64,000 nucleotides of DNA from a virus, in IMG/VR virus record IMGVR_UViG_3300045136_000892; one strand, given 5' to 3'. The position numbers and the translations under genes were made by a program. Under the pieces are notes generated by a model, which was not told where the DNA came from, made no database searches, and saw only the letters and a list, made by a program, of their open reading frames with translations. Below are positions 10,295-22,296 of the stretch, piece after piece (the stretch's first letter is position 1; every line of letters starts with the position of its first letter).

Positions 10295-11854
10295 ATGGCC
10301 TTCGGCACGGATGAACTGAAGCAGAGCCTCATCCGGCGCCTGGAGATCATCGACAAGCTCGACCGGGACCCCGAACTGCAGGCCATCGCCATGGCGCGGG
10401 CGGCCAAGGACCCGGTGTGGTGGTTCAACACCTTCGCCTGGACCTACGACCCGCGCGGCGCGGCCAAGGGCCTGCCCGCTTACCTGCCCTTCGACCTGTT
10501 CCCCCGCCAGGAGGAGCTGATCCGCTGGCTGGATGACCGCGTGGCCGCCTCCCAGGAGGGCTTGGTCGAGAAATCCCGCGACGTGGGCTGGACCTGGGTG
10601 GCGGCGGGCTACGCCCTGCACAAGTGGCTCTTCGCACCCGGCTTCAAGACGACGTTCGGCAGCCGCAAGGAGGTCTACGTCGACCGCATCGGCGACCCGG
10701 ACAGCATCTTCGGCAAGATCCGCCTGATGCTGGACCGCCTGCCGCACTGGATGCTGCCGGCGGGCCTGAACCGGGCCGAGCACGACAACTTTATGCGCCT
10801 GATCAACCCGGCCAACGGGAACGCCATCACCGGCGAGGCGGGCGACAACATGGGCCGCGGCGGGCGCTCGACGCTCTACGTCGTGGACGAGGGCGCGTTC
10901 ATCGAGCACGCCGAGAAGGTCGACGCCGCCATCGTGGCGAACGCAAACACAAGGATCTGGGCGTCTTCGGTCAACGGCACCGGCAACGTCTTCTTCCGCA
11001 AGCGGCACTCCGGCCACATCCCGGTCTTCCGTTTCCACTGGTCCGACGACCCCCGCAAGGACGCGGCCTGGGCCGAGGCCAAGCAGCGGGAGCTCTCCTC
11101 GACTCCGGCCACCTGGGCGGCCGAGTACGACATCGACTACGCGGCCTCGGTCGAGGGCATCTGCATCCCGGCAAAGTGGGTGGAATCCTCCTTGAAGCTG
11201 GCCAGGGCGCTCAAACGGCAGCCGCAAGGGCCGGGTACGGCGGGGCTCGACGTCGGCGCCGGTAGGGCCAAGTCCGTGCTGGTCCCCAAGTTCGGGCCGG
11301 TCGTGGTCATGCCGACTTTCTGGCAGACCGTGGACAACATCCACGTCACCCACGACGCCCTGGACGTGGCCCGGAGCCTCGGCGTCCGGCAGGTCAACTA
11401 TGACTCCGCCGGCGTCGGCAACACGGTCACCAGCACGCTGGTGCATGCGAACACCGAAGGCGTCACCGTCAGCCCGATCAACGTGGGCGTGCCGCCGACC
11501 GAGACCCTGATGCCCGACGGCCGCATGGCCTCAGAGTGGTTCGGCAACCTCAAGGCCCAGCTCTGGTGGGCGATGCGCGACGCCTTCAAGGCCACGCACG
11601 AGCACGTCCGCTACCTGGAGGGCTACGAGGACGGCGTGCCGCACTCGGAGGACGAATGGATCCTGCTGCCCGACTGTAACGAGCTGATCGGCCAGGTCTC
11701 GCTCCCGAAGTGGTTCAGGAACGAGGGGGGCAAGATCGTCATCGAGACCAAGAAACAACTCGCGATGCGGGGCGTGCCCTCGCCGGACTACGCCGAGGCC
11801 CTCGTGCTCAACTATGCCCAGGGAGGTTCCGGCTTCCACTTCGCGTCGATTTAG
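10295..11854 (+). CDS. terminase large subunit
   Basis: EKSRDVGWTW ATPase motif, GRGGR, VVDEGA, GLDVGAG, SPDYAEAL nuclease. Confidence 0.92.
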   Translation: MAFGTDELKQSLIRRLEIIDKLDRDPELQAIAMARAAKDPVWWFNTFAWTYDPRGAAKGLPAYLPFDLFPRQEELIRWLDDRVAASQEGLVEKSRDVGWTWVAAGYALHKWLFAPGFKTTFGSRKEVYVDRIGDPDSIFGKIRLMLDRLPHWMLPAGLNRAEHDNFMRLINPANGNAITGEAGDNMGRGGRSTLYVVDEGAFIEHAEKVDAAIVANANTRIWASSVNGTGNVFFRKRHSGHIPVFRFHWSDDPRKDAAWAEAKQRELSSTPATWAAEYDIDYAASVEGICIPAKWVESSLKLARALKRQPQGPGTAGLDVGAGRAKSVLVPKFGPVVVMPTFWQTVDNIHVTHDALDVARSLGVRQVNYDSAGVGNTVTSTLVHANTEGVTVSPINVGVPPTETLMPDGRMASEWFGNLKAQLWWAMRDAFKATHEHVRYLEGYEDGVPHSEDEWILLPDCNELIGQVSLPKWFRNEGGKIVIETKKQLAMRGVPSPDYAEALVLNYAQGGSGFHFASI

Positions 11855-11869
11855 GAAAGACCGGACCGG

Positions 11870-13192
11870 ATGGGATTGTTCACGAGCTTCAAGCAGCGAC
11901 TGGGCCGCAGGCGGAATGAGCCGCAGCGCGACACCGAGGTCTACCCCCGGCTGATGCAGATCATGTCGGGGCAGCGGGTCGCGCACAACACGCCCGTCTT
12001 CAAGCCGACGCCCTGGAATCTCCGGGCGTTCTCGACGACGCCCTACGCCCGCCGGGCGATCAACACGATCAAGAACCCCATCGCCCAGCTCGAATGGGAG
12101 GTGGTGCCCAAGAAGGGCGTCACGGACAACTCCGAGATCCGCCGCCAGTGCCAACTGGTGACCACCTGCCTCCGCAGCCCGAACAACGAGGACAGCTGGC
12201 GGTCGCTGGTCGAGAAGGTCATCACCGACCTCATGCTCGGGGCCGGGGCCATCGAGATGCAGCTCGGCGGCGACGCGAGCCGCCCGCTCTGGCTCTACCC
12301 GGTGGATGCCCTCTCCGTGCAGATCTACGCGGGCTGGACCGGCGACCGGCGCGAGGCGAAATACTGCCAGGTGCCGGGCTACGGGATGCTGACCGCGGGT
12401 AACGGCATCGACCTGCTGGCGGACGAGCTGATCTACATCGCGCCGAACCCGTCGACGGCCCACCCCTTCGGGTGCGGGCCGCTGGAGATTGCCTTCACGA
12501 CCGTCTCCCGCCTGCTGGGCGTGGGCGAGTACGCGGGCAACGTGGCGACGAACGCCCGGCCCACGACCCTGCTCAACCTTGGCAAGGCCACACCCGAGCA
12601 ACTTGCGACCTTCCGGACCTACTGGACCAACGAGATCGAAGGCCAGGGCAAGATGCCCATCCTGAGCGGCGACGGCATCGAGCCCGTCAAGCTCACCGCC
12701 GACGGCGACGAGGCCCTATACCTGAAGTGGCAGGAGTTCCTGAAGACCGAGATCGCCACCGCATTCGACATCTCGCCGCAGAACCTCGGCGTCGAGCGGG
12801 ACGTGAACCGCAACACCGCCGAGGTGGCCGAGTCCCGCGACTGGGACCACGCGATCAAGCCGTGGGCCGGTCTGCTGGCCAGCCATATCAACCGGGACGC
12901 CATCGAGGGGCGGCTCGGGTTCAGCCAGGTCGAGTTCCGCTTTCTGGGCCTCGACCGCGAGGACGAGAAGCGCGAGGCGGAGATCCACCAGATTTACATC
13001 AAGAACAACGTCTACACCCCCAACGAGGTGCGCAACCGGCTGGGCGAGCCGCCCGCGGAGCACAAATGGGGCGATATGACCTTCGCCGACATCCAGATCG
13101 CCACCGCCGCCGCGGCGAAGGAGCGGAAACAAGACGGCCCCGCCGAGGACGGCGCGGGCGACGAACCGAAACCGAGCAAGAAAGGAACCTGA
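11870..13192 (+). CDS. portal protein
   Basis: Follows terL; GCGPLEIA, EIATAFDISPQNLG, YTPNEVRNRLG. Confidence 0.9.
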   Translation: MGLFTSFKQRLGRRRNEPQRDTEVYPRLMQIMSGQRVAHNTPVFKPTPWNLRAFSTTPYARRAINTIKNPIAQLEWEVVPKKGVTDNSEIRRQCQLVTTCLRSPNNEDSWRSLVEKVITDLMLGAGAIEMQLGGDASRPLWLYPVDALSVQIYAGWTGDRREAKYCQVPGYGMLTAGNGIDLLADELIYIAPNPSTAHPFGCGPLEIAFTTVSRLLGVGEYAGNVATNARPTTLLNLGKATPEQLATFRTYWTNEIEGQGKMPILSGDGIEPVKLTADGDEALYLKWQEFLKTEIATAFDISPQNLGVERDVNRNTAEVAESRDWDHAIKPWAGLLASHINRDAIEGRLGFSQVEFRFLGLDREDEKREAEIHQIYIKNNVYTPNEVRNRLGEPPAEHKWGDMTFADIQIATAAAAKERKQDGPAEDGAGDEPKPSKKGT

Positions 13193-13195
13193 TCC

Positions 13196-13966
13196 ATGTT
13201 CGCACTCCACACCATCGGCCTCCTGTCCGGCAGCAAGCAGCCCGCATTCGGCGATCGCCTGCTGATGGGCGTCGCAAACAACGTTGCCTTCCCGGCCTCC
13301 GCCAACGCGGTCACCGTGCTCGGCTCGATCACCGCCGGCACCGGCTTCACCAACATCAGCACCGTCACCCTGGCGCCCAGCGGCGGCACGGGCAGCGGCC
13401 TGAAGGCCGTGCCCACCTCCCTGAAGGCGGTCTCGGCTACCGTCGTCAACGGCGGCACCAGCGGCTACGCGGTGAACGACACCATCACACTGACCAACGG
13501 CGTCGTGCTGACCGTCGCAAGCGTGAGCAGCGGCGTGGTCGCCACCGTGACCGTCACCACGGCGGGTGCCTTCACAGGCCAGGTGGTCACCAACCCGGTC
13601 GCGCAGGCCTCGACCAGCGGCTCGGGCGTCGGCACCCCGACCTTCAACCTGTCCTACGGCCTCGGCACCGCGGCCATCGTCGACAGCGGCAACTACACCG
13701 TCGCCCCCTCGATGACGGTCACGGACAGCGCCGGCGGCACTGGCGCCTCCATCGGCACCTGCACCCTGGGCGGAAACGGCAACGCGATCTTCAAGTTCGT
13801 GCCCTTCCAGGCCGCCCCTCCTTACAACGTGCTGGTCGAACCCGGCCTCGACTGCCGCCACTACGTCCCCTCCTCGCTGAAGACCAGCACGGGGTTCACC
13901 GTCGCCCTGGTGCCGCCGAGCACCACGCTGGCCGCCGGCACGTTCGACGCAACGCTAATCGCTTAA
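13196..13966 (+). CDS. Gly/Thr/Ser-rich virion (decoration-like) protein
   Basis: Beta-rich; shares a domain with the tail sheath insertion. Confidence 0.6.
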   Translation: MFALHTIGLLSGSKQPAFGDRLLMGVANNVAFPASANAVTVLGSITAGTGFTNISTVTLAPSGGTGSGLKAVPTSLKAVSATVVNGGTSGYAVNDTITLTNGVVLTVASVSSGVVATVTVTTAGAFTGQVVTNPVAQASTSGSGVGTPTFNLSYGLGTAAIVDSGNYTVAPSMTVTDSAGGTGASIGTCTLGGNGNAIFKFVPFQAAPPYNVLVEPGLDCRHYVPSSLKTSTGFTVALVPPSTTLAAGTFDATLIA

Positions 13967-13984: not shown

Positions 13985-14485
13985 ATGTCGAAGAAAAGCA
14001 CCCAGAAGCCCACCGAAACCAAGGCCGAGAAGTCCCAGGCGGTAGAGGGCACGGTCGAGACCACCGCCCAGGAAGCACCCGCTCTGGAACAGGTGGAGGC
14101 CTCCAATGAGCAACCGGGGGACAACGCGGTGAATGAACCCGCCGAACAGAATCCGGAAGACGCGAAGGCTGAGGAATCGGACGACGAAACCGCAGCCGCG
14201 CCTGCGCTCGCTACCGAGCCCGCAGCTGCGAAGGCATCCGATGAGGCGGAATCGACCCCGCTCCCGTCGGCCCCCGTCATCCCCCCGGCGCCCACCGACC
14301 TCGCCAACCGCCTCACTCTTGCCGTCCGTGCCATCGTCGCCACCGGCGCTCCCGAGGCGGTGCACGCCCTGCACAAGGCCGAGCTGATCCTGGGCGACCT
14401 CAGGAACGCCCTCCCGGCGGCCATCGCCTCGGCCGGTGACGAGCAGCTCAAGGCCGACCTGACGAGCCTGCTCGCGGTCCTGTAG
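13985..14485 (+). CDS. acidic Ala/Glu-rich hypothetical protein
   Basis: SD AAGGAG; low-complexity N-terminal half. Confidence 0.6.
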   Translation: MSKKSTQKPTETKAEKSQAVEGTVETTAQEAPALEQVEASNEQPGDNAVNEPAEQNPEDAKAEESDDETAAAPALATEPAAAKASDEAESTPLPSAPVIPPAPTDLANRLTLAVRAIVATGAPEAVHALHKAELILGDLRNALPAAIASAGDEQLKADLTSLLAVL

Positions 14486-14490
14486 GTCCC

Positions 14491-16005
14491 ATGTCCGAGC
14501 AGGGACTGTACGTCCGCCGTAACCTGACCCCCGATTCGGCGGCCGCTTTCGCCGCCTGGGCGAAGTCGCAGGGCTTCACAAACCTCGTTCCCGAGCACGA
14601 GCTCCACGCGACCATCGTCTACAGCCGGGCCCCGGTCTGGTTCCGCCCCCAGGGCGGAAACATGGCCGCGAGCACCGGCGGGCGATTCGTCACGCCGCTC
14701 GGGGCCAAGGGCGCCATCGTCTTGCACTTCGTCTGCCCCGAACTGGAGGCCCGCTGGAAGGAAGCCCGCCAGATGGGTGCGTCGTGGGATCACGGCGACA
14801 GCTACTCCCCCCACGTCACCATCACCTACGACGCCGGAGACGTGGACCTTTCGAAGGTTGTCCCCTTCGATGGCGACCTGGTGTTCGGCCCCGAGATCCA
14901 CGAGCCGCTTAACGAGCACTGGGCCGAGGAGAAGGGCTTCGTGAAGCTGGAGGCCGCATCCCTCGAAGTCGTGGACCGCATCGAGGCGATGGCACTCATC
15001 CTGCCCCACACGCCCGGCCACCCGAACAAGCATCCCTTCAAGGGCATCCTGACCCGCATCGACCAGCCGAGCGACCGGCCGCCCGAGGGCAGCAAGAACC
15101 GCCGCGTCATCCTGACGCGGGCGGCTGCCGAACGCGCGTTGCCCACGCTCCTGGGGATGCCCGTGGACCTCGCCTCCGACCTGGCGGGCCACGACGTCAA
15201 GCGCAAGATCGGGACCATCACGGCGGCCACCATCGAGGGGGACGCCATCCACATCGAAGGATTCCTATACGCGGCCGACTTTCCCGATGAAGTCGCCCGC
15301 GTGCGGTCCGAACGTAGCCTGCTCGGCTTCTCCTACGAGATGCGGAACATCTACGTGAAGGACACCACCGCGGCTTCGTGGGAGATCACGGACTGCGTCT
15401 TCACCGGGGCTGCGATCCTCTACAAGGACAAGGCCGCATACTCAACCACATCACTGGCCGCGCAGGCCGAGGAGAACACCATGGACATCAATGAACTGAA
15501 GGAACTGCTCAAGGCCCAGGCCGAATCCCAGGAAAAGGCGATGAAGGACGCCCTGGATGCGGGCTTCGCCACCGTGAACAAGCGCATCGACGCCATCGAG
15601 GCCGCCGCGGCGGAGGAGAAGCAGAAGGCCGAGGAGGCTCGCGCCGCTGCCGCCGCCGAGAAGAAAGCCGCGGACGAGAAGGCCGCTGCCGACATTAAGG
15701 CCGCCGCCGAGAAGGAGGCCAGCGACAAGAAGGTGAAGGAGCTGGAGGACAAGCTCGCGGCCCAGGAGACGCAGATCGCCGACCTGAAGGCCGCGGCGGC
15801 GAAGAACGCCCAGCCCGCCGAGCGCAAGACGCTGACGCCCCATGTGACCGCCCTGCTGGCGCGCAGCGGCCTCACCCTGCCTGGCGAGAACGCCAAGCTC
15901 TCCCTCGGCGAAGTCGACAAGGCGTTCGCCTCCGCCAACCTGGAGCCGGTCCAGCGCATCGAGCTGAAGAACGCCCTCTCCAAGGCCGGCCTGCTCGCCG
16001 TCTAA
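14491..16005 (+). CDS. Acb1-like 2H phosphoesterase fused to prohead protease and scaffold
   Basis: N-term LYVRR...LHATIVYS...YSPHVTITY (two HxT motifs); middle GHD..IG and GFSYE protease-like motifs; C-terminal coiled coil with internal SD+ATG at 15481. Confidence 0.8.
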   Translation: MSEQGLYVRRNLTPDSAAAFAAWAKSQGFTNLVPEHELHATIVYSRAPVWFRPQGGNMAASTGGRFVTPLGAKGAIVLHFVCPELEARWKEARQMGASWDHGDSYSPHVTITYDAGDVDLSKVVPFDGDLVFGPEIHEPLNEHWAEEKGFVKLEAASLEVVDRIEAMALILPHTPGHPNKHPFKGILTRIDQPSDRPPEGSKNRRVILTRAAAERALPTLLGMPVDLASDLAGHDVKRKIGTITAATIEGDAIHIEGFLYAADFPDEVARVRSERSLLGFSYEMRNIYVKDTTAASWEITDCVFTGAAILYKDKAAYSTTSLAAQAEENTMDINELKELLKAQAESQEKAMKDALDAGFATVNKRIDAIEAAAAEEKQKAEEARAAAAAEKKAADEKAAADIKAAAEKEASDKKVKELEDKLAAQETQIADLKAAAAKNAQPAERKTLTPHVTALLARSGLTLPGENAKLSLGEVDKAFASANLEPVQRIELKNALSKAGLLAV

Positions 16006-16036: not shown

Positions 16037-17044
16037 ATGACCATCAAACCCGAACACGGCGCGCAGTTCGTCGATTCCATGCAGGCCGCCGCCGACTTCC
16101 TCGGCAACGGCGCCATCGAAGTCAACATGTACGAGACCGAGATCTTCGACCTCGTACGCCGCTCCTCTCCGATCATGGAGCGCATCAAGGCCGAGCCCGC
16201 CAATGGCCACCCGCACCGCTTCTTCGAGCAGTCGGCGATCGCCCAGGGCGCGTTCACCGATCCCCGTAGCATCAGCTACTCTGCCGGCGGCCCGACCCGC
16301 ACCGAGAAGGTGATCTACATCAAGGGCATGGTGAACGGGTCCAACTTCGGCCTGTTCGACGTGCAGGTGACCCAGCAGCAGGGCCAGTTCAGCTACGTCG
16401 AGGCCAAGGACGTCAACGACATCATCAACGGCATCCAGGTCGTCCGCTGCCAGAAGATCTGGCAGGGCGCCGACACGTCCTACGCCTCGCCCACCAGCAT
16501 CGAGTACTACGGCCTGCTGAACCAGATCACCCGCCAGGCGACCATCGCCCCCGGCGCGTCGATCATCGACGGCATCAAGGCCGAGGTGGCCGCGATGGTG
16601 GCGAACACCAGCTACGTCGTCCGCCCGACCGCCGTCTACGTGAACCCCATAGTCGGTGACCTCATCGACCGCGAGGCGAAGGCGGCGAGCATCAAGCTGA
16701 GCGAGGTGGTCGTGGCCGGCGTGACGGTGAACGCGATCCAGACCCAGGCGGGCCTGCTTCCGATCATCTCGAACGACCCGTTCCTGCCCAGCGCCACGGG
16801 CTCGGCCTACGGGTTCTCGGCTCCCCCGGCCGGGTACAAGAACTACTTCTGCGCCATCCTGAGCGAGTCGCTTGTCACCCGCCCGTACATCGACGGCGGC
16901 AAGCACAACGGCGGCATCCCGCAGTTGTACCAGCTCGGCCTGGTCGGCGACCTCCAGAAGAAGTTCGTCGCCGTGCTGTTCGACGCGGTTCTCGCGAAGG
17001 GCAGTTCCTATGCCCACTCGATCGTGGCCGTGCAGCGTCCGTAA
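16037..17044 (+). CDS. major capsid protein
   Basis: 335 aa directly after protease/scaffold; strong SD; highly biased codons. Confidence 0.8.
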   Translation: MTIKPEHGAQFVDSMQAAADFLGNGAIEVNMYETEIFDLVRRSSPIMERIKAEPANGHPHRFFEQSAIAQGAFTDPRSISYSAGGPTRTEKVIYIKGMVNGSNFGLFDVQVTQQQGQFSYVEAKDVNDIINGIQVVRCQKIWQGADTSYASPTSIEYYGLLNQITRQATIAPGASIIDGIKAEVAAMVANTSYVVRPTAVYVNPIVGDLIDREAKAASIKLSEVVVAGVTVNAIQTQAGLLPIISNDPFLPSATGSAYGFSAPPAGYKNYFCAILSESLVTRPYIDGGKHNGGIPQLYQLGLVGDLQKKFVAVLFDAVLAKGSSYAHSIVAVQRP

Positions 17045-19713: not shown

Positions 19714-21480
19714 ATGTCCGGTCTGATCGTCCAGCAAGGCCAGGTGAACACGAACGCCATCGTCGTCCCCAATCTCATCATCCAGATCGTCCCACCCTCG
19801 TTCACGCTGCTCAACGGAGTTCCCACCAACGTTGTGGGCATCGTCGGCACCGCAACCTGGGGCCCGGTGAACAGCCCGGTGATCGCCTCGGGCATCTCCG
19901 ACGCCACCCGCCTGTTTGGCCCGATGCAGCCGCGCAAGCACGACCTGAACACCGCCGTCTTCGCCGCGGCCCTCCAGGGCGGCGCGGCCAACCTGCGCCT
20001 GGTGCGCGTCACCGACGGCACGGACGCCGCCGCCTCGGCGGCCGTCCGCCAGGTGGGCGTCTCCGCCGCCTCCGTCGCTGCGGGCGGCTCCGGCTACGCG
20101 GTGGGCAACACCATCACCCTGACCGGCGGCGCCGTGCTGACCGTGTCCTCGGTCTCCTCGGGCGCGGTAACCGGCGTCACCGTCACCACCCCGGGCTCGT
20201 ACTCCGCGATCCCGGCCAACCCCGTGGTCCAGACCGCGACCAGCGGCAGCGGCAGCGGCGCGACGTTCAACCTGACGTTCGCCACCGGCCTGACACTCAC
20301 CGCGATGTACACCGGCAGCAACGGCAACAACCTGACCTACGCGATCGGCGCCGGCTCGAACAGCACGCCGGGCGCGCCGACCTACAAGCTGACCTTCCAG
20401 CTCCCCGGCCAGCTCCCCGAGGTGTTCGACAACATCGGCGGAACCGGCAACGCCCTGTACCAGAACATGGCCAGCGCCATCAACCTCGGCCAGAGCGGGC
20501 TGCGCGGCCCGTCCGAGCTGGTGGTCGCCACCGCCGGGGCCGCCACCCTCGCCCCGATCACGGGAACGGGCACGCTCTCGGGCGGCACGGACGGCACGGG
20601 CACCATCAACTCGGCCACCCTCGTCGGCCAGGACACCGTCCCCCGCAAGGGCATGTACGCCCTGCGGGACACCGGGGTGAGCGTCGCCATGCTGGCGGAC
20701 GCCGACGACTCGGCCCAGTGGACCTACCAGAACGCCTTCGGCCTGTCCGAGGGGGCATACATGATCGGCGTCAGCCCGGCGGGCGACACCATCACCAATT
20801 TCGCCACCACGGTCGCCAGCGCGGGCATCGACAGCTACGCGATGAAGATCCTCTTCGGCGACTGGTGCTACATCTCCGACCCTGTGAACAACCAGGTCCG
20901 CCTGATCTCGCCCCAGGGCTTCATCGCCGGGCTGCTCGGCAACCTCACGCCCTCGAACTCGACCCTGAACAAGCCGATCCAGGGCATCGTGGGCACCCAG
21001 AAGACCCGCCTGAACCAGCAGTACAGCCAGGCCGAACTGCAGGCCATCGCGCTCGCCCGCGGCGACCTGATCACCAACCCGGCCCCCGGCGGCAGCTACT
21101 TCGCTGCCCGGTTCGGCCGCAACACTTCCAGCAATGCGGTGATCCACGGCGACAACTACACCCGGATGACCAACTTCATCGCCGCGACGCTGAACGCGGG
21201 CATGGGCCTCTACGTCGGCCGCAAGATCAGCCCGACGCTGATGAACCAGGCCTACGCCACGCTGGACGCTTTCCTGTCGAACCTGGAGCAGCAGGGCGAG
21301 AGCCAGGACCACCAGATCGTCCTGGACGCCTCCAACAACCCGTTCAGCCGCACAGCGCTGGGCTACCTGCAGGCCGACGTGAAGGTGCGGTACTTCAGCA
21401 TCACGGAGGTCCTGTTAGTGAATCTGGAAGGCGGCCAGAGCGTAAGAATTGATCGCGTGAGCACCAATCCTGCTGTATGA
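19714..21480 (+). CDS. contractile tail sheath protein
   Basis: GIVGTATWGPVN, VRVTDGTD, LSGGTDG, NYTRMTNFI, GYLQADVKV. Confidence 0.92.
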   Translation: MSGLIVQQGQVNTNAIVVPNLIIQIVPPSFTLLNGVPTNVVGIVGTATWGPVNSPVIASGISDATRLFGPMQPRKHDLNTAVFAAALQGGAANLRLVRVTDGTDAAASAAVRQVGVSAASVAAGGSGYAVGNTITLTGGAVLTVSSVSSGAVTGVTVTTPGSYSAIPANPVVQTATSGSGSGATFNLTFATGLTLTAMYTGSNGNNLTYAIGAGSNSTPGAPTYKLTFQLPGQLPEVFDNIGGTGNALYQNMASAINLGQSGLRGPSELVVATAGAATLAPITGTGTLSGGTDGTGTINSATLVGQDTVPRKGMYALRDTGVSVAMLADADDSAQWTYQNAFGLSEGAYMIGVSPAGDTITNFATTVASAGIDSYAMKILFGDWCYISDPVNNQVRLISPQGFIAGLLGNLTPSNSTLNKPIQGIVGTQKTRLNQQYSQAELQAIALARGDLITNPAPGGSYFAARFGRNTSSNAVIHGDNYTRMTNFIAATLNAGMGLYVGRKISPTLMNQAYATLDAFLSNLEQQGESQDHQIVLDASNNPFSRTALGYLQADVKVRYFSITEVLLVNLEGGQSVRIDRVSTNPAV

Positions 21481-21486
21481 TCATTC

Positions 21487-22296
21487 TTGAGTATGGAAAA
21501 ACGCAACAGGCATAGCGCAAAACGAAACGCGAGTCGCTCTGATTCGGAAATACAGTATCCGGCCGAGAAATGCTGTTCGGTTTGCAAAGAGACAAAGCTA
21601 GCGGCAGCATTTTCCAGGGCGCGGCGAGAGAAGGATGGCCTGAAATCCAATTGCAAGGGATGCGCCAAGGCGCAAAGACGCAGCTGGTACGTTCGGAATG
21701 CGGAACGTGAGAAGCAAAAGGCCGAGGAATGGCAGCGCGCCAATCCTGAGAAGAAGAAACTGATTGCCAAAAAGACCTACTACAAGAACCACGCCTCTCG
21801 CAAAGCACGTCTAATCGCTGCATACCGGGTCAACAAAGGGAAAATCAGCAGGCAGCAGCGTGAGCGTTACAACTCAGACCCTGAATTTCGCCAGAACAAG
21901 ATGGCGCGGGCAAAGCAGTACTACAAGAGAAGCAAGCCCAAAATTGCTGAATACAAAAAGAAACTGCAGAGGGAGCAACCCGAAAAGCTCCAGGCATGGG
22001 CCAATTCTGCTCGAATCAAGCGGGCTGCCGCATCGGGGAAATGCACTGCCGACGAGTGGCAGGAGATCCTCGAGTACTTCAATTACCACTGTGCCTACTG
22101 CCTCCAGCACGAAAGCATGGTTGGCAGGTTGTCAATGGACCACATGACACCGATTACACGAGGCGGGGATAACAGCCCAGATAACATTGTCCCGGCCTGC
22201 AAGCCGTGCAATTCCTCGAAGTACAACCTGACCGTACTTGAGTATCTTGGATCTATGAATATTCCTCGCAAAGATCGAACAATCATCGCCGTCTAA
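21487..22296 (+). CDS. free-standing HNH homing endonuclease
   Basis: CAYC...DHMTPITRGG.N...NIVPACKPCNSSK; N-terminal Cys pairs; lower GC than flanks. Confidence 0.88.
   Translation: MSMEKRNRHSAKRNASRSDSEIQYPAEKCCSVCKETKLAAAFSRARREKDGLKSNCKGCAKAQRRSWYVRNAEREKQKAEEWQRANPEKKKLIAKKTYYKNHASRKARLIAAYRVNKGKISRQQRERYNSDPEFRQNKMARAKQYYKRSKPKIAEYKKKLQREQPEKLQAWANSARIKRAAASGKCTADEWQEILEYFNYHCAYCLQHESMVGRLSMDHMTPITRGGDNSPDNIVPACKPCNSSKYNLTVLEYLGSMNIPRKDRTIIAV

Follow-up and report, generated by a model that had tools for sequence, protein, structure and literature searches.

An Acb1-type phosphodiesterase domain at the N-terminus of a predicted nested prohead protease-scaffold gene in a planctomycete provirus

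Introduction

In phage lambda (C/Nu3), phage Mu (I/Z), and the herpesviruses (UL26/UL26.5), a single gene encodes an assemblin-fold protease in its N-terminal part and a scaffold in its C-terminal part, and a second, in-frame start inside the gene also yields the scaffold by itself; the abundant scaffold and the minor protease-scaffold chain co-assemble into the procapsid via their common C-terminus. To our knowledge, none of these genes carries an extra enzymatic passenger ahead of the protease. Here we describe an open reading frame (ORF) in which a domain of the Acb1 family, whose characterised members counter the cyclic oligonucleotide-based antiphage signalling system (CBASS), precedes the protease and scaffold. 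The ORF lies at 14491-16005 (forward strand) of a 64,000-nt stretch of viral DNA (hereafter the window), which is part of a 142,954-nt IMG/VR provirus (IMGVR_UViG_3300045136_000892); the host type is a planctomycete bacterium, and the closest cultured host is Limnoglobus roseus. The ORF encodes 504 aa, with no stop codon or frameshift over its 1,515 nt.

The active site of Acb1 consists of an HxT/HxT tetrad, and a C-terminal lid (residues 145-152 in the FBB1 enzyme) closes over the ligand (Hobbs et al., 2022; PMC9117128). Prohead proteases were recently reported to cleave the activation loop of the cGAS/DncV-like nucleotidyltransferases (CD-NTases) of CBASS, which is sufficient for CBASS activation (Hobbs and Kranzusch, 2026 preprint; PMC12991175), and mutations that let phages escape CBASS have been located in protease-scaffold fusions (Richmond-Buccola et al., 2023 preprint; 10.1101/2023.05.21.541620). 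Separately, Iyer, Burroughs, Anand, de Souza, and Aravind reported fusions of 2H domains with MuF or portal proteins, as well as assemblin-like peptidases in the C-terminal part of polyvalent proteins; they predicted packaging in the head, injection, and possible degradation of defence nucleotides (Iyer et al., 2017; PMC5512222).

Acb1 fusions go unmentioned in both preprints on CBASS activation, and a natural fusion is likewise not mentioned by Hobbs et al. (2022). We found no paper in the literature on an Acb1-prohead protease-nested scaffold design; the nearest are Iyer et al. (2017) and one sentence in Doherty et al. (2025; bioRxiv 10.1101/2025.08.21.671373), which reports additional domains in 13 of 75 viral 2H phosphodiesterases and lists “proteases” without discussing them. 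To these we add a quantified nested scaffold start, a modular N-terminal slot, the pattern of gain and loss, and a cultured lysogen.

Results

Residues 1-146 of the ORF product (14491-14928, forward strand) are an Acb1-type 2H phosphodiesterase domain, as assigned from a family profile, PDB sequence matches, and an AlphaFold2 (AF2) model searched with Foldseek. Residues 4-146 match Pfam PF23474 (Acb1) with an E-value of 2.1e-43 and 148 bits (cut-off 27), spanning profile positions 1-143 of 144, and the match was seen again in our genome search, at 150.8 bits. The top PDB sequence match by phmmer is the FBB1 Acb1 (7t26; E 5.8e-13, 31% identity), and the second is the portal protein of cyanophage Pam3 (8hds, residues 471-616; E 6.8e-11). 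The predicted local distance difference test (pLDDT) score of the AF2 model is 90-98 over the domain (residues 11-140); Foldseek also returned 7t26 at the top (E 3e-11, TMt 0.82, rmsd 3.2), with 2H enzymes of the LigT type far behind (E 2e-4 or worse). An earlier examination of the letters of the window and its ORFs (the sequence-only reading) had called the first ~150 aa an Acb1-like 2H domain, and the profile and structure comparisons bear it out. It had also placed all the motifs discussed here (HAT, HVT, GHD, GFSYE, and a Shine-Dalgarno (SD) sequence with an ATG at 15481) in a single ORF, and every one of these placements is exact. The tetrad residues H39 (14605), T41 (14611), H108 (14812), and T110 (14818), in HAT at 14605-14613 and HVT at 14812-14820, do not vary when the protein is aligned with FBB1 Acb1 and protease-fused and portal-fused homologs.

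Within residues 147-165 (14929-14985, forward strand), the Acb1 module finishes with a lid-like “NEHWAEEKGF” and a variable flexible tether follows, as delimited from the alignment, pLDDT, and the ratio of nonsynonymous to synonymous substitution rates (dN/dS). The lid-like stretch corresponds in the alignment to the C-terminus of FBB1 Acb1 and runs on into the tether, with low model confidence here; “WAE[ED]KG[FYL]” is kept in Acb1 modules on three different protease families. Over residues 147-165, dN/dS is 0.52, and pLDDT is below 50 for residues 151-185. The Acb1 domain itself is under purifying selection, with a constraint at least as strong as that of the protease (dN/dS 0.105 and 0.165, respectively, against the Limnoglobus ortholog). 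Judging from its sequence, it should be an intact 2H phosphodiesterase that would linearise CBASS cyclic di- and trinucleotides.

The PHROGs label for the family of this domain is “RNA ligase”, which is in line with a different assignment: an Acb1-family enzyme with another job, acting on the cyclic triadenylate (cA3) of type III CRISPR systems, on 2′-5′ oligoadenylates, on Panoptes- or Thoeris-type signals, or on RNA 2′,3′-cyclic phosphate ends, with CBASS no longer as the main target. Such a job would fit with the infrequency of CD-NTases in the host order (of 121 genomes sampled from the order of Limnoglobus, 7 have a SMODS cyclase), with the proposal of Iyer et al. (2017) that 2H domains on MuF and portal proteins have RNase or nucleotide-signal roles, and with the marked differences in substrate among viral 2H phosphodiesterases, despite a conserved active site, that are described by Doherty et al. 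(2025). We consider this assignment quite unlikely, since the full-length match to the Acb1 family is far above threshold, the closest solved structure is Acb1 (E 3e-11, vs 2e-4 for the LigT type), and lid-like C-terminal residues appear to be retained.

Fold searches identified residues 166-314 (14986-15432, forward strand) as a capsid-maturation (prohead) protease domain. Folded alone with 64 homologs, the domain gave a model with a pLDDT of 87.6 and a predicted template modelling (pTM) score of 0.81. In an exhaustive structural search with VIA-align, T4 gp21 (5jbl) was on top (Z 11.4, 129 aligned, rmsd 3.4), with the varicella-zoster virus protease (1vzv) at Z 11.2 and the human cytomegalovirus protease (8j3s) at Z 8.8; unrelated folds reached at most Z 7.5. 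Foldseek gave 26 matches at E ≤ 1e-3, and among the matches listed all were herpesvirus proteases or gp21 (E 1.6e-5 at best for the human cytomegalovirus protease). Matches to PHROG “head maturation protease” families were weak (E 4e-3 and 6e-3), and no protease family was matched by residues 166-314 in Pfam, NCBIfam, or PDB, with either the single sequence or a 64-sequence profile. The domain is not recognised by sequence as a member of the curated families Peptidase_S78, S77, S21, S78_2, or DUF2213; its sequence lineage is uncatalogued in the Pfam copy that we used, and the newer PF27290 was found on some relatives. The presumed catalytic residues are H234 (in GHD, 15190) and S281 (in GFSYE, 15331), which, together with E283, are invariant across 55-64 aligned relatives. 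Alignment ranges to gp21, interpolated and not a residue-level superposition, put H234 and S281 near H85 and S140 of gp21, the residues mutated to kill that protease (PMC12991175). At the level of the modelled fold, residues 166-314 are confirmed as a capsid protease of the assemblin/T4 gp21/HK97 gp4 fold, in agreement with the protease-like domain of the sequence-only reading. A fold search with the model of the whole 504-aa protein returned only 2H enzymes, and the protease fold was seen once the domain had been folded alone.

An invariant “AMAL...HPNKxPF” motif marks the N-terminal edge of the protease domain. We considered its invariant Met167 as the start of an Acb1-free protease, and rejected it: an SD sequence is present in just one of 62 relatives, and “AMAL” is a protein motif. 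At the other edge of the domain is a conserved disordered junction, AAYSTTSLAAQAEEN (residues 315-330; 15433-15480, forward strand), defined from pLDDT and the alignment. Here pLDDT is below 50 (residues 315-336), yet A316, T320, and A324 are invariant, and the consensus in relatives is “AAYxTTSLAAxAEE”. By analogy with the R-sites of herpesviruses, the junction is a candidate self-cleavage (release) site. The protease ORF ends at the junction in a few relatives (L076-L079 and L081). A common cleavage motif for the junctions “AM[AS]L” and “T[ST]SL” was also considered, and the likeness was too weak.

The junction also carries an internal ribosome-binding site: an SD sequence, GAGGAG (15469-15474, forward strand), with a 6-nt spacer to the ATG at 15481, which encodes M331 and is conserved in at least 90% of the sequences. 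At 3-11 nt 5′ of this Met, 55 of the 58 distinct relatives show an SD-like core, vs 33 of 555 (6%) other internal ATGs. The residues encoded under the SD vary (EE, GE, QE, KE, TE, and others) and the GGAG/AGGA motif stays, which in this alignment indicates that the signal is selected at the nucleotide level. The nested in-frame scaffold gene (residues 331-504; 15481-16005, forward strand), assigned from the internal start and the AF2 model, would encode one long coiled-coil helix (residues 334-438) followed by helices at 450-498; the coiled coil with its own SD and ATG had been noticed in the sequence-only reading, and stands. Residues 445-504 form a conserved helical domain (R445 and K446 are invariant), presumed to be the capsid-binding end of the scaffold. 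Overall, the ORF at 14491-16005 has the features of a nested protease/scaffold gene with a predicted second product from 15481. Most relatives that lack Acb1 have an extra scaffold segment of ~60 aa, “VEPHAxALExCAxAMExxGIGxHxxxGHVxxxRxMAxxLRAxA”, which is missing from the window’s clade.

The ATG of the full-length fusion at 14491 has no SD of its own, and the stop codon of the upstream gene is 5 nt before it, which suggests that the full-length start is translationally coupled to that gene. The upstream gene (13985-14485, forward strand) encodes an acidic low-complexity protein of 166 aa, rich in Ala, Glu, and Pro and without a family match. We compared this protein with the scaffold for a common C-terminal targeting peptide and found no similarity.

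At least 24 clusters of a 5.8-billion-protein collection contain the fused architecture (identity 41-93%), with Aquisphaera giovannonii and Limnoglobus roseus, both complete genomes, among the sources; no record of a cultured phage covers at least 80% of the fusion protein. One could suppose that the fusion is an artefact, in which assembly or a frameshift has joined neighbouring genes, or a decaying remnant, an inactive passenger that is being lost; Acb1 is indeed missing from most relatives, and one cluster (P0018) starts within the Acb1 domain. This explanation is extremely improbable, and is effectively refuted by the conservation of the fused frame across these clusters and the two complete genomes, by the invariance of the four catalytic residues and the low dN/dS of 0.105, and by a frame free of stops and frameshifts.

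A survey of related phages, which the sequence-only reading had proposed, showed that Acb1 is variably present: among 80 related protease-scaffold loci in IMG/VR, only the Limnoglobus prophage has Acb1 within 10 kb. The N-terminal slot of the protease family may be empty or hold DUF6582, Acb1, DUF6582 with Acb1, or DUF6582 with MuF and Acb1. On the tree of the protease and C-terminal parts, the presence of Acb1 takes seven changes, at least three of them forced by well-supported branches, and on the tree of Acb1 domains those of the fusion family take just three changes. This difference points to few acquisitions of Acb1, which would have been followed by loss or exchange. The last of the slot arrangements is exemplified by P0016, an 866-aa metagenomic protein with DUF6582, Mu F, Acb1, protease, and scaffold, i.e., with two head-anchoring modules in one chain.

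To define the partners of this Acb1 subfamily, we took the 120 closest longer proteins that carry the domain. Head proteases account for 40 of them (16 of the family described here, 18 DUF2213, and six XkdF/S78_2), with Acb1 at the N-terminus in every example checked; the three families are sequence-distinct from one another, and DUF2213 corresponds to phrog_2229, “head maturation protease” (E 1e-63). Portals are the larger group, with 66 proteins (47 Phage_portal_3, 17 Portal_Mu, and two Phage_portal), and in every example checked Acb1 is C-terminal. MuF proteins (Phage_Mu_F) contribute two, and the remaining 12 are other or unannotated, including NUDIX, Zeta-toxin, and ART+ParB polyvalent proteins. 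A search without the length filter found 2,050 cluster representatives at E ≤ 1e-3; of the nearest 150 (median 514 aa), 132 are longer than 260 aa and 12 are of stand-alone size (at most 210 aa). Fusion to capsid-interior proteins is the prevailing form of this Acb1 subfamily, and the common denominator of its partners is the capsid interior, not the protease.

Several proteins in this set have further architectures. In four metagenomic proteins (P0122, P0125, P0126, and P0145), a NUDIX hydrolase and Acb1 precede a DUF2213 head protease, so that two nucleotide-directed enzymes are ahead of the protease; in P0130 and P0191, a Zeta-toxin/AAA_33 kinase lies downstream of portal-Acb1. An Acb1-family domain in which both HxT motifs are present forms the end of the portals of cyanophage Pam3 and of Pseudomonas phiPSA1-like, Rhizobium RHEph/RHph, and Synechococcus phages.

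The partner spectrum bears directly on what the fusion is for. The sequence-only reading had started from the premise that head-assembly proteases activate CBASS cyclases, which the two preprints support (PMC12991175; 10.1101/2023.05.21.541620), and had inferred that the fusion ties the antidote to the trigger in time and place and may package Acb1 into virions or release it by autoproteolysis. In the explicit form of the first idea, Acb1 would be fused to the prohead protease because the protease itself sets off CBASS, giving one signal-destroying enzyme per trigger molecule, in the same place and at the same moment, and packaging would be irrelevant. Cleavage of CD-NTase activation loops by prohead proteases speaks for this, as do the escape mutations in protease-scaffold fusions and the finding that the scaffold domain alone induces CBASS toxicity (10.1101/2023.05.21.541620). 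In addition, Acb1 is joined to three protease families, each time N-terminally, and the protease-borne Acb1 modules are mutually closer (51-64% identity to our query) than those on the aligned portal fusions (48-52%). However, portal fusions outnumber protease fusions (66 vs 40 of the 120), and MuF and giant polyvalent proteins are carriers too, none of which is a known trigger; the signal is small and diffusible, so that linkage adds little over co-expression from the same operon; and most relatives of the protease lack Acb1. The comparative data therefore do not favour a tie between antidote and trigger, which we regard as unlikely. It is similarly doubtful that selection has made the N-terminus of head-maturation proteases a landing place for counter-defence enzymes for the very reason that the protease triggers CBASS, with Acb1 in cis cancelling the alarm that its own molecule raises, and so a “self-silencing trigger” evolved independently on three protease families. 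Portals and MuF proteins are not known to trigger CBASS but, like the protease, are in the capsid interior, and packaging or autoproteolytic release of Acb1, the second option of the sequence-only reading, fits this better than the antidote-trigger tie.

We also checked whether a CBASS target exists in the host clade. The two strong Acb1 matches, the only ones in the 121 genomes of the order of Limnoglobus, are both within open frames of at least 520 aa, i.e., fusions. One genome (G113) has an operon of a SAVED-domain effector (481 aa) and an adjoining SMODS cyclase (388 aa) (L085, G113:C67:5913-9296) and, elsewhere (L089, G113:C137), a 543-aa Acb1-protease-scaffold gene. Given the SMODS cyclases in 7 of the 121 genomes, a CBASS target exists in the clade; the co-occurrence in G113 is a single anecdote and is not statistically meaningful.

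The genes around the fusion are ordered as terminase, portal, two small genes, the Acb1-protease-scaffold fusion, and a probable capsid gene, so that the fusion is between the portal and probable major capsid genes, the placement typical of a capsid-maturation protease. The large terminase subunit is at 10295-11854 (forward strand; phrog_5989, E 6.6e-25; phrog_2, E 7e-20), and the portal protein (440 aa, without an Acb1 domain) at 11870-13192 (forward strand; PF04860, E 5.7e-48; phrog_12, E 1.5e-46). The two small genes after the portal had no informative family match in profile searches of Pfam, PHROGs, and NCBIfam. Downstream of the fusion, a gene at 16037-17044 (forward strand), with its own AGGAG before the start, encodes a 335-aa protein that is likely the major capsid protein. 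An ESM Atlas look-alike search related it at 0.98-0.99 to clusters named SU10_MCP/HK97-type major capsid protein, and sequence searches of Pfam, PHROGs, NCBIfam, and PDB gave no match. The sequence-only reading had put the fusion immediately before the capsid gene: the position is right, and the capsid identity, from synteny and the language-model look-alike only, is a lead, not proof.

The first of the small genes, directly after the portal (13196-13966), encodes a 256-aa protein rich in Ala, Gly, Thr, and Val; it shares a module of ~79 aa (59% identity, E 1e-17; residues 79-157 vs 116-192) with a 588-aa downstream structural protein (19714-21480), which is also without an informative family match. 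The common module may be a surface or decoration domain. The virion module also contains, immediately behind the gene for the 588-aa protein, a 269-aa ORF (21487-22296), rich in Lys and Arg and with Cys-rich stretches, which by eye looks like an HNH-type nuclease.

Discussion

The explanation that we favour, with confidence slightly above even for the statement as a whole, is a two-product gene whose Acb1 domain is loaded into the head as cargo and also acts in the late cytoplasm. The partner spectrum (protease N-termini, portal C-termini, MuF, and giant polyvalent proteins, all of the capsid interior) is what favours head-loaded cargo. Abundant scaffold would be translated from the internal SD and the ATG at 15481, and a rarer full-length Acb1-protease-scaffold chain from 14491, by coupling to the upstream gene. 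The common C-terminal, capsid-binding part of the scaffold would then bring the full-length chain, with the protease and its Acb1 passenger, into the procapsid. While the pool of protein is unassembled and the protease active, Acb1 could act in the late cytoplasm; once the chain has cut itself at the conserved disordered junctions, Acb1 would probably be retained in the capsid as cargo, and may reach the next cell along with the DNA. In this scheme, we infer the enzyme activity and its substrate, the stoichiometry of the two products, the cleavage sites, packaging, and injection.

Several points weigh against this explanation. Neither the 143-kb record nor the genome of Limnoglobus roseus, which carries the ortholog, yielded a CD-NTase (SMODS cyclase), and the variation in substrate among 2H enzymes (Doherty et al., 2025) means that cleavage of cyclic GMP-AMP (cGAMP) or cA3 is not assured. 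The other 79 of the 80 IMG/VR loci have no Acb1, portal-fused or standalone, within ±10 kb, so the domain is, on this genomic evidence, dispensable for the head machinery. CBASS fires late, and there is no obvious gain from an early delivery of Acb1. Head proteases usually digest themselves and exit the capsid, and the folded 17-kDa Acb1 domain may be degraded or lost alongside; moreover, no cleavage motif is definable from the conserved junctions. Lastly, our literature searches found no test of packaging or injection of head-fused counter-defence enzymes, and the Pam3 structure paper (PMC9942802) does not mention the Acb1-like C-terminal part of the portal.

The fusion matters since the best-known CBASS antidote is here built into a class of protein that has been reported since 2026 as a direct activator of CBASS. 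Limnoglobus roseus PX52, a cultured and fully sequenced lysogen whose prophage encodes a 75% identical ortholog (NZ_CP042425.1, around 1.975 Mb), offers a simple natural system for two questions: whether head-fused counter-defence enzymes are packaged and delivered, as predicted in 2017, and whether linkage of antidote and trigger matters. If the self-silencing trigger, doubtful as it is, were true, the sensing of proteases by CD-NTases and its evasion would be directly testable with one protein. Screens of small ORFs miss a fused Acb1, which bears on how anti-defence genes are sought, and the comparisons suggest that published portal structures such as that of Pam3 hold an enzyme domain that has gone unnoticed.

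Compared with known systems, the ORF at 14491-16005 has the same nested layout as lambda C/Nu3, Mu I/Z, and herpesvirus UL26/UL26.5. Its N-terminal domain shares with Acb1 (the product of T4 gene 57B; FBB1, 7T26/7T27) the 2H fold, the HxT/HxT tetrad, and a phage origin near structural genes, and its C-terminal residues are lid-like; the characterised Acb1 proteins are free-standing and of about 150 aa, whereas the domain described here makes up the first third of a head-assembly protein of 504 aa. The portals of Pam3 (gp3; 8HDS; PMC9942802) and of phiPSA1, Rhizobium, and Synechococcus phages place the same Acb1 subfamily on a capsid-interior protein. In these portal-Acb1 phage records (36-43% identity), unlike in our fusion, Acb1 is joined to a portal, at its C-terminal side. 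The polyvalent proteins of Iyer et al. (2017) follow the same plan of an effector with an anchor in the head interior, encoded among virion genes; the 2H partners in that text are MuF and portal, not an essential protease-scaffold with a nested scaffold, and it predates both Acb1 and the finding of proteases as triggers. Similar to the gene described here, the protease-scaffold fusions of T1-like phages (Drexlerviridae) and T4 gp21 have a protease of the gp21 fold and then an alpha-helical scaffold; in those phages, escape from CBASS comes from point mutations or from acb genes that stand apart, whereas here the countermeasure is in the same polypeptide.

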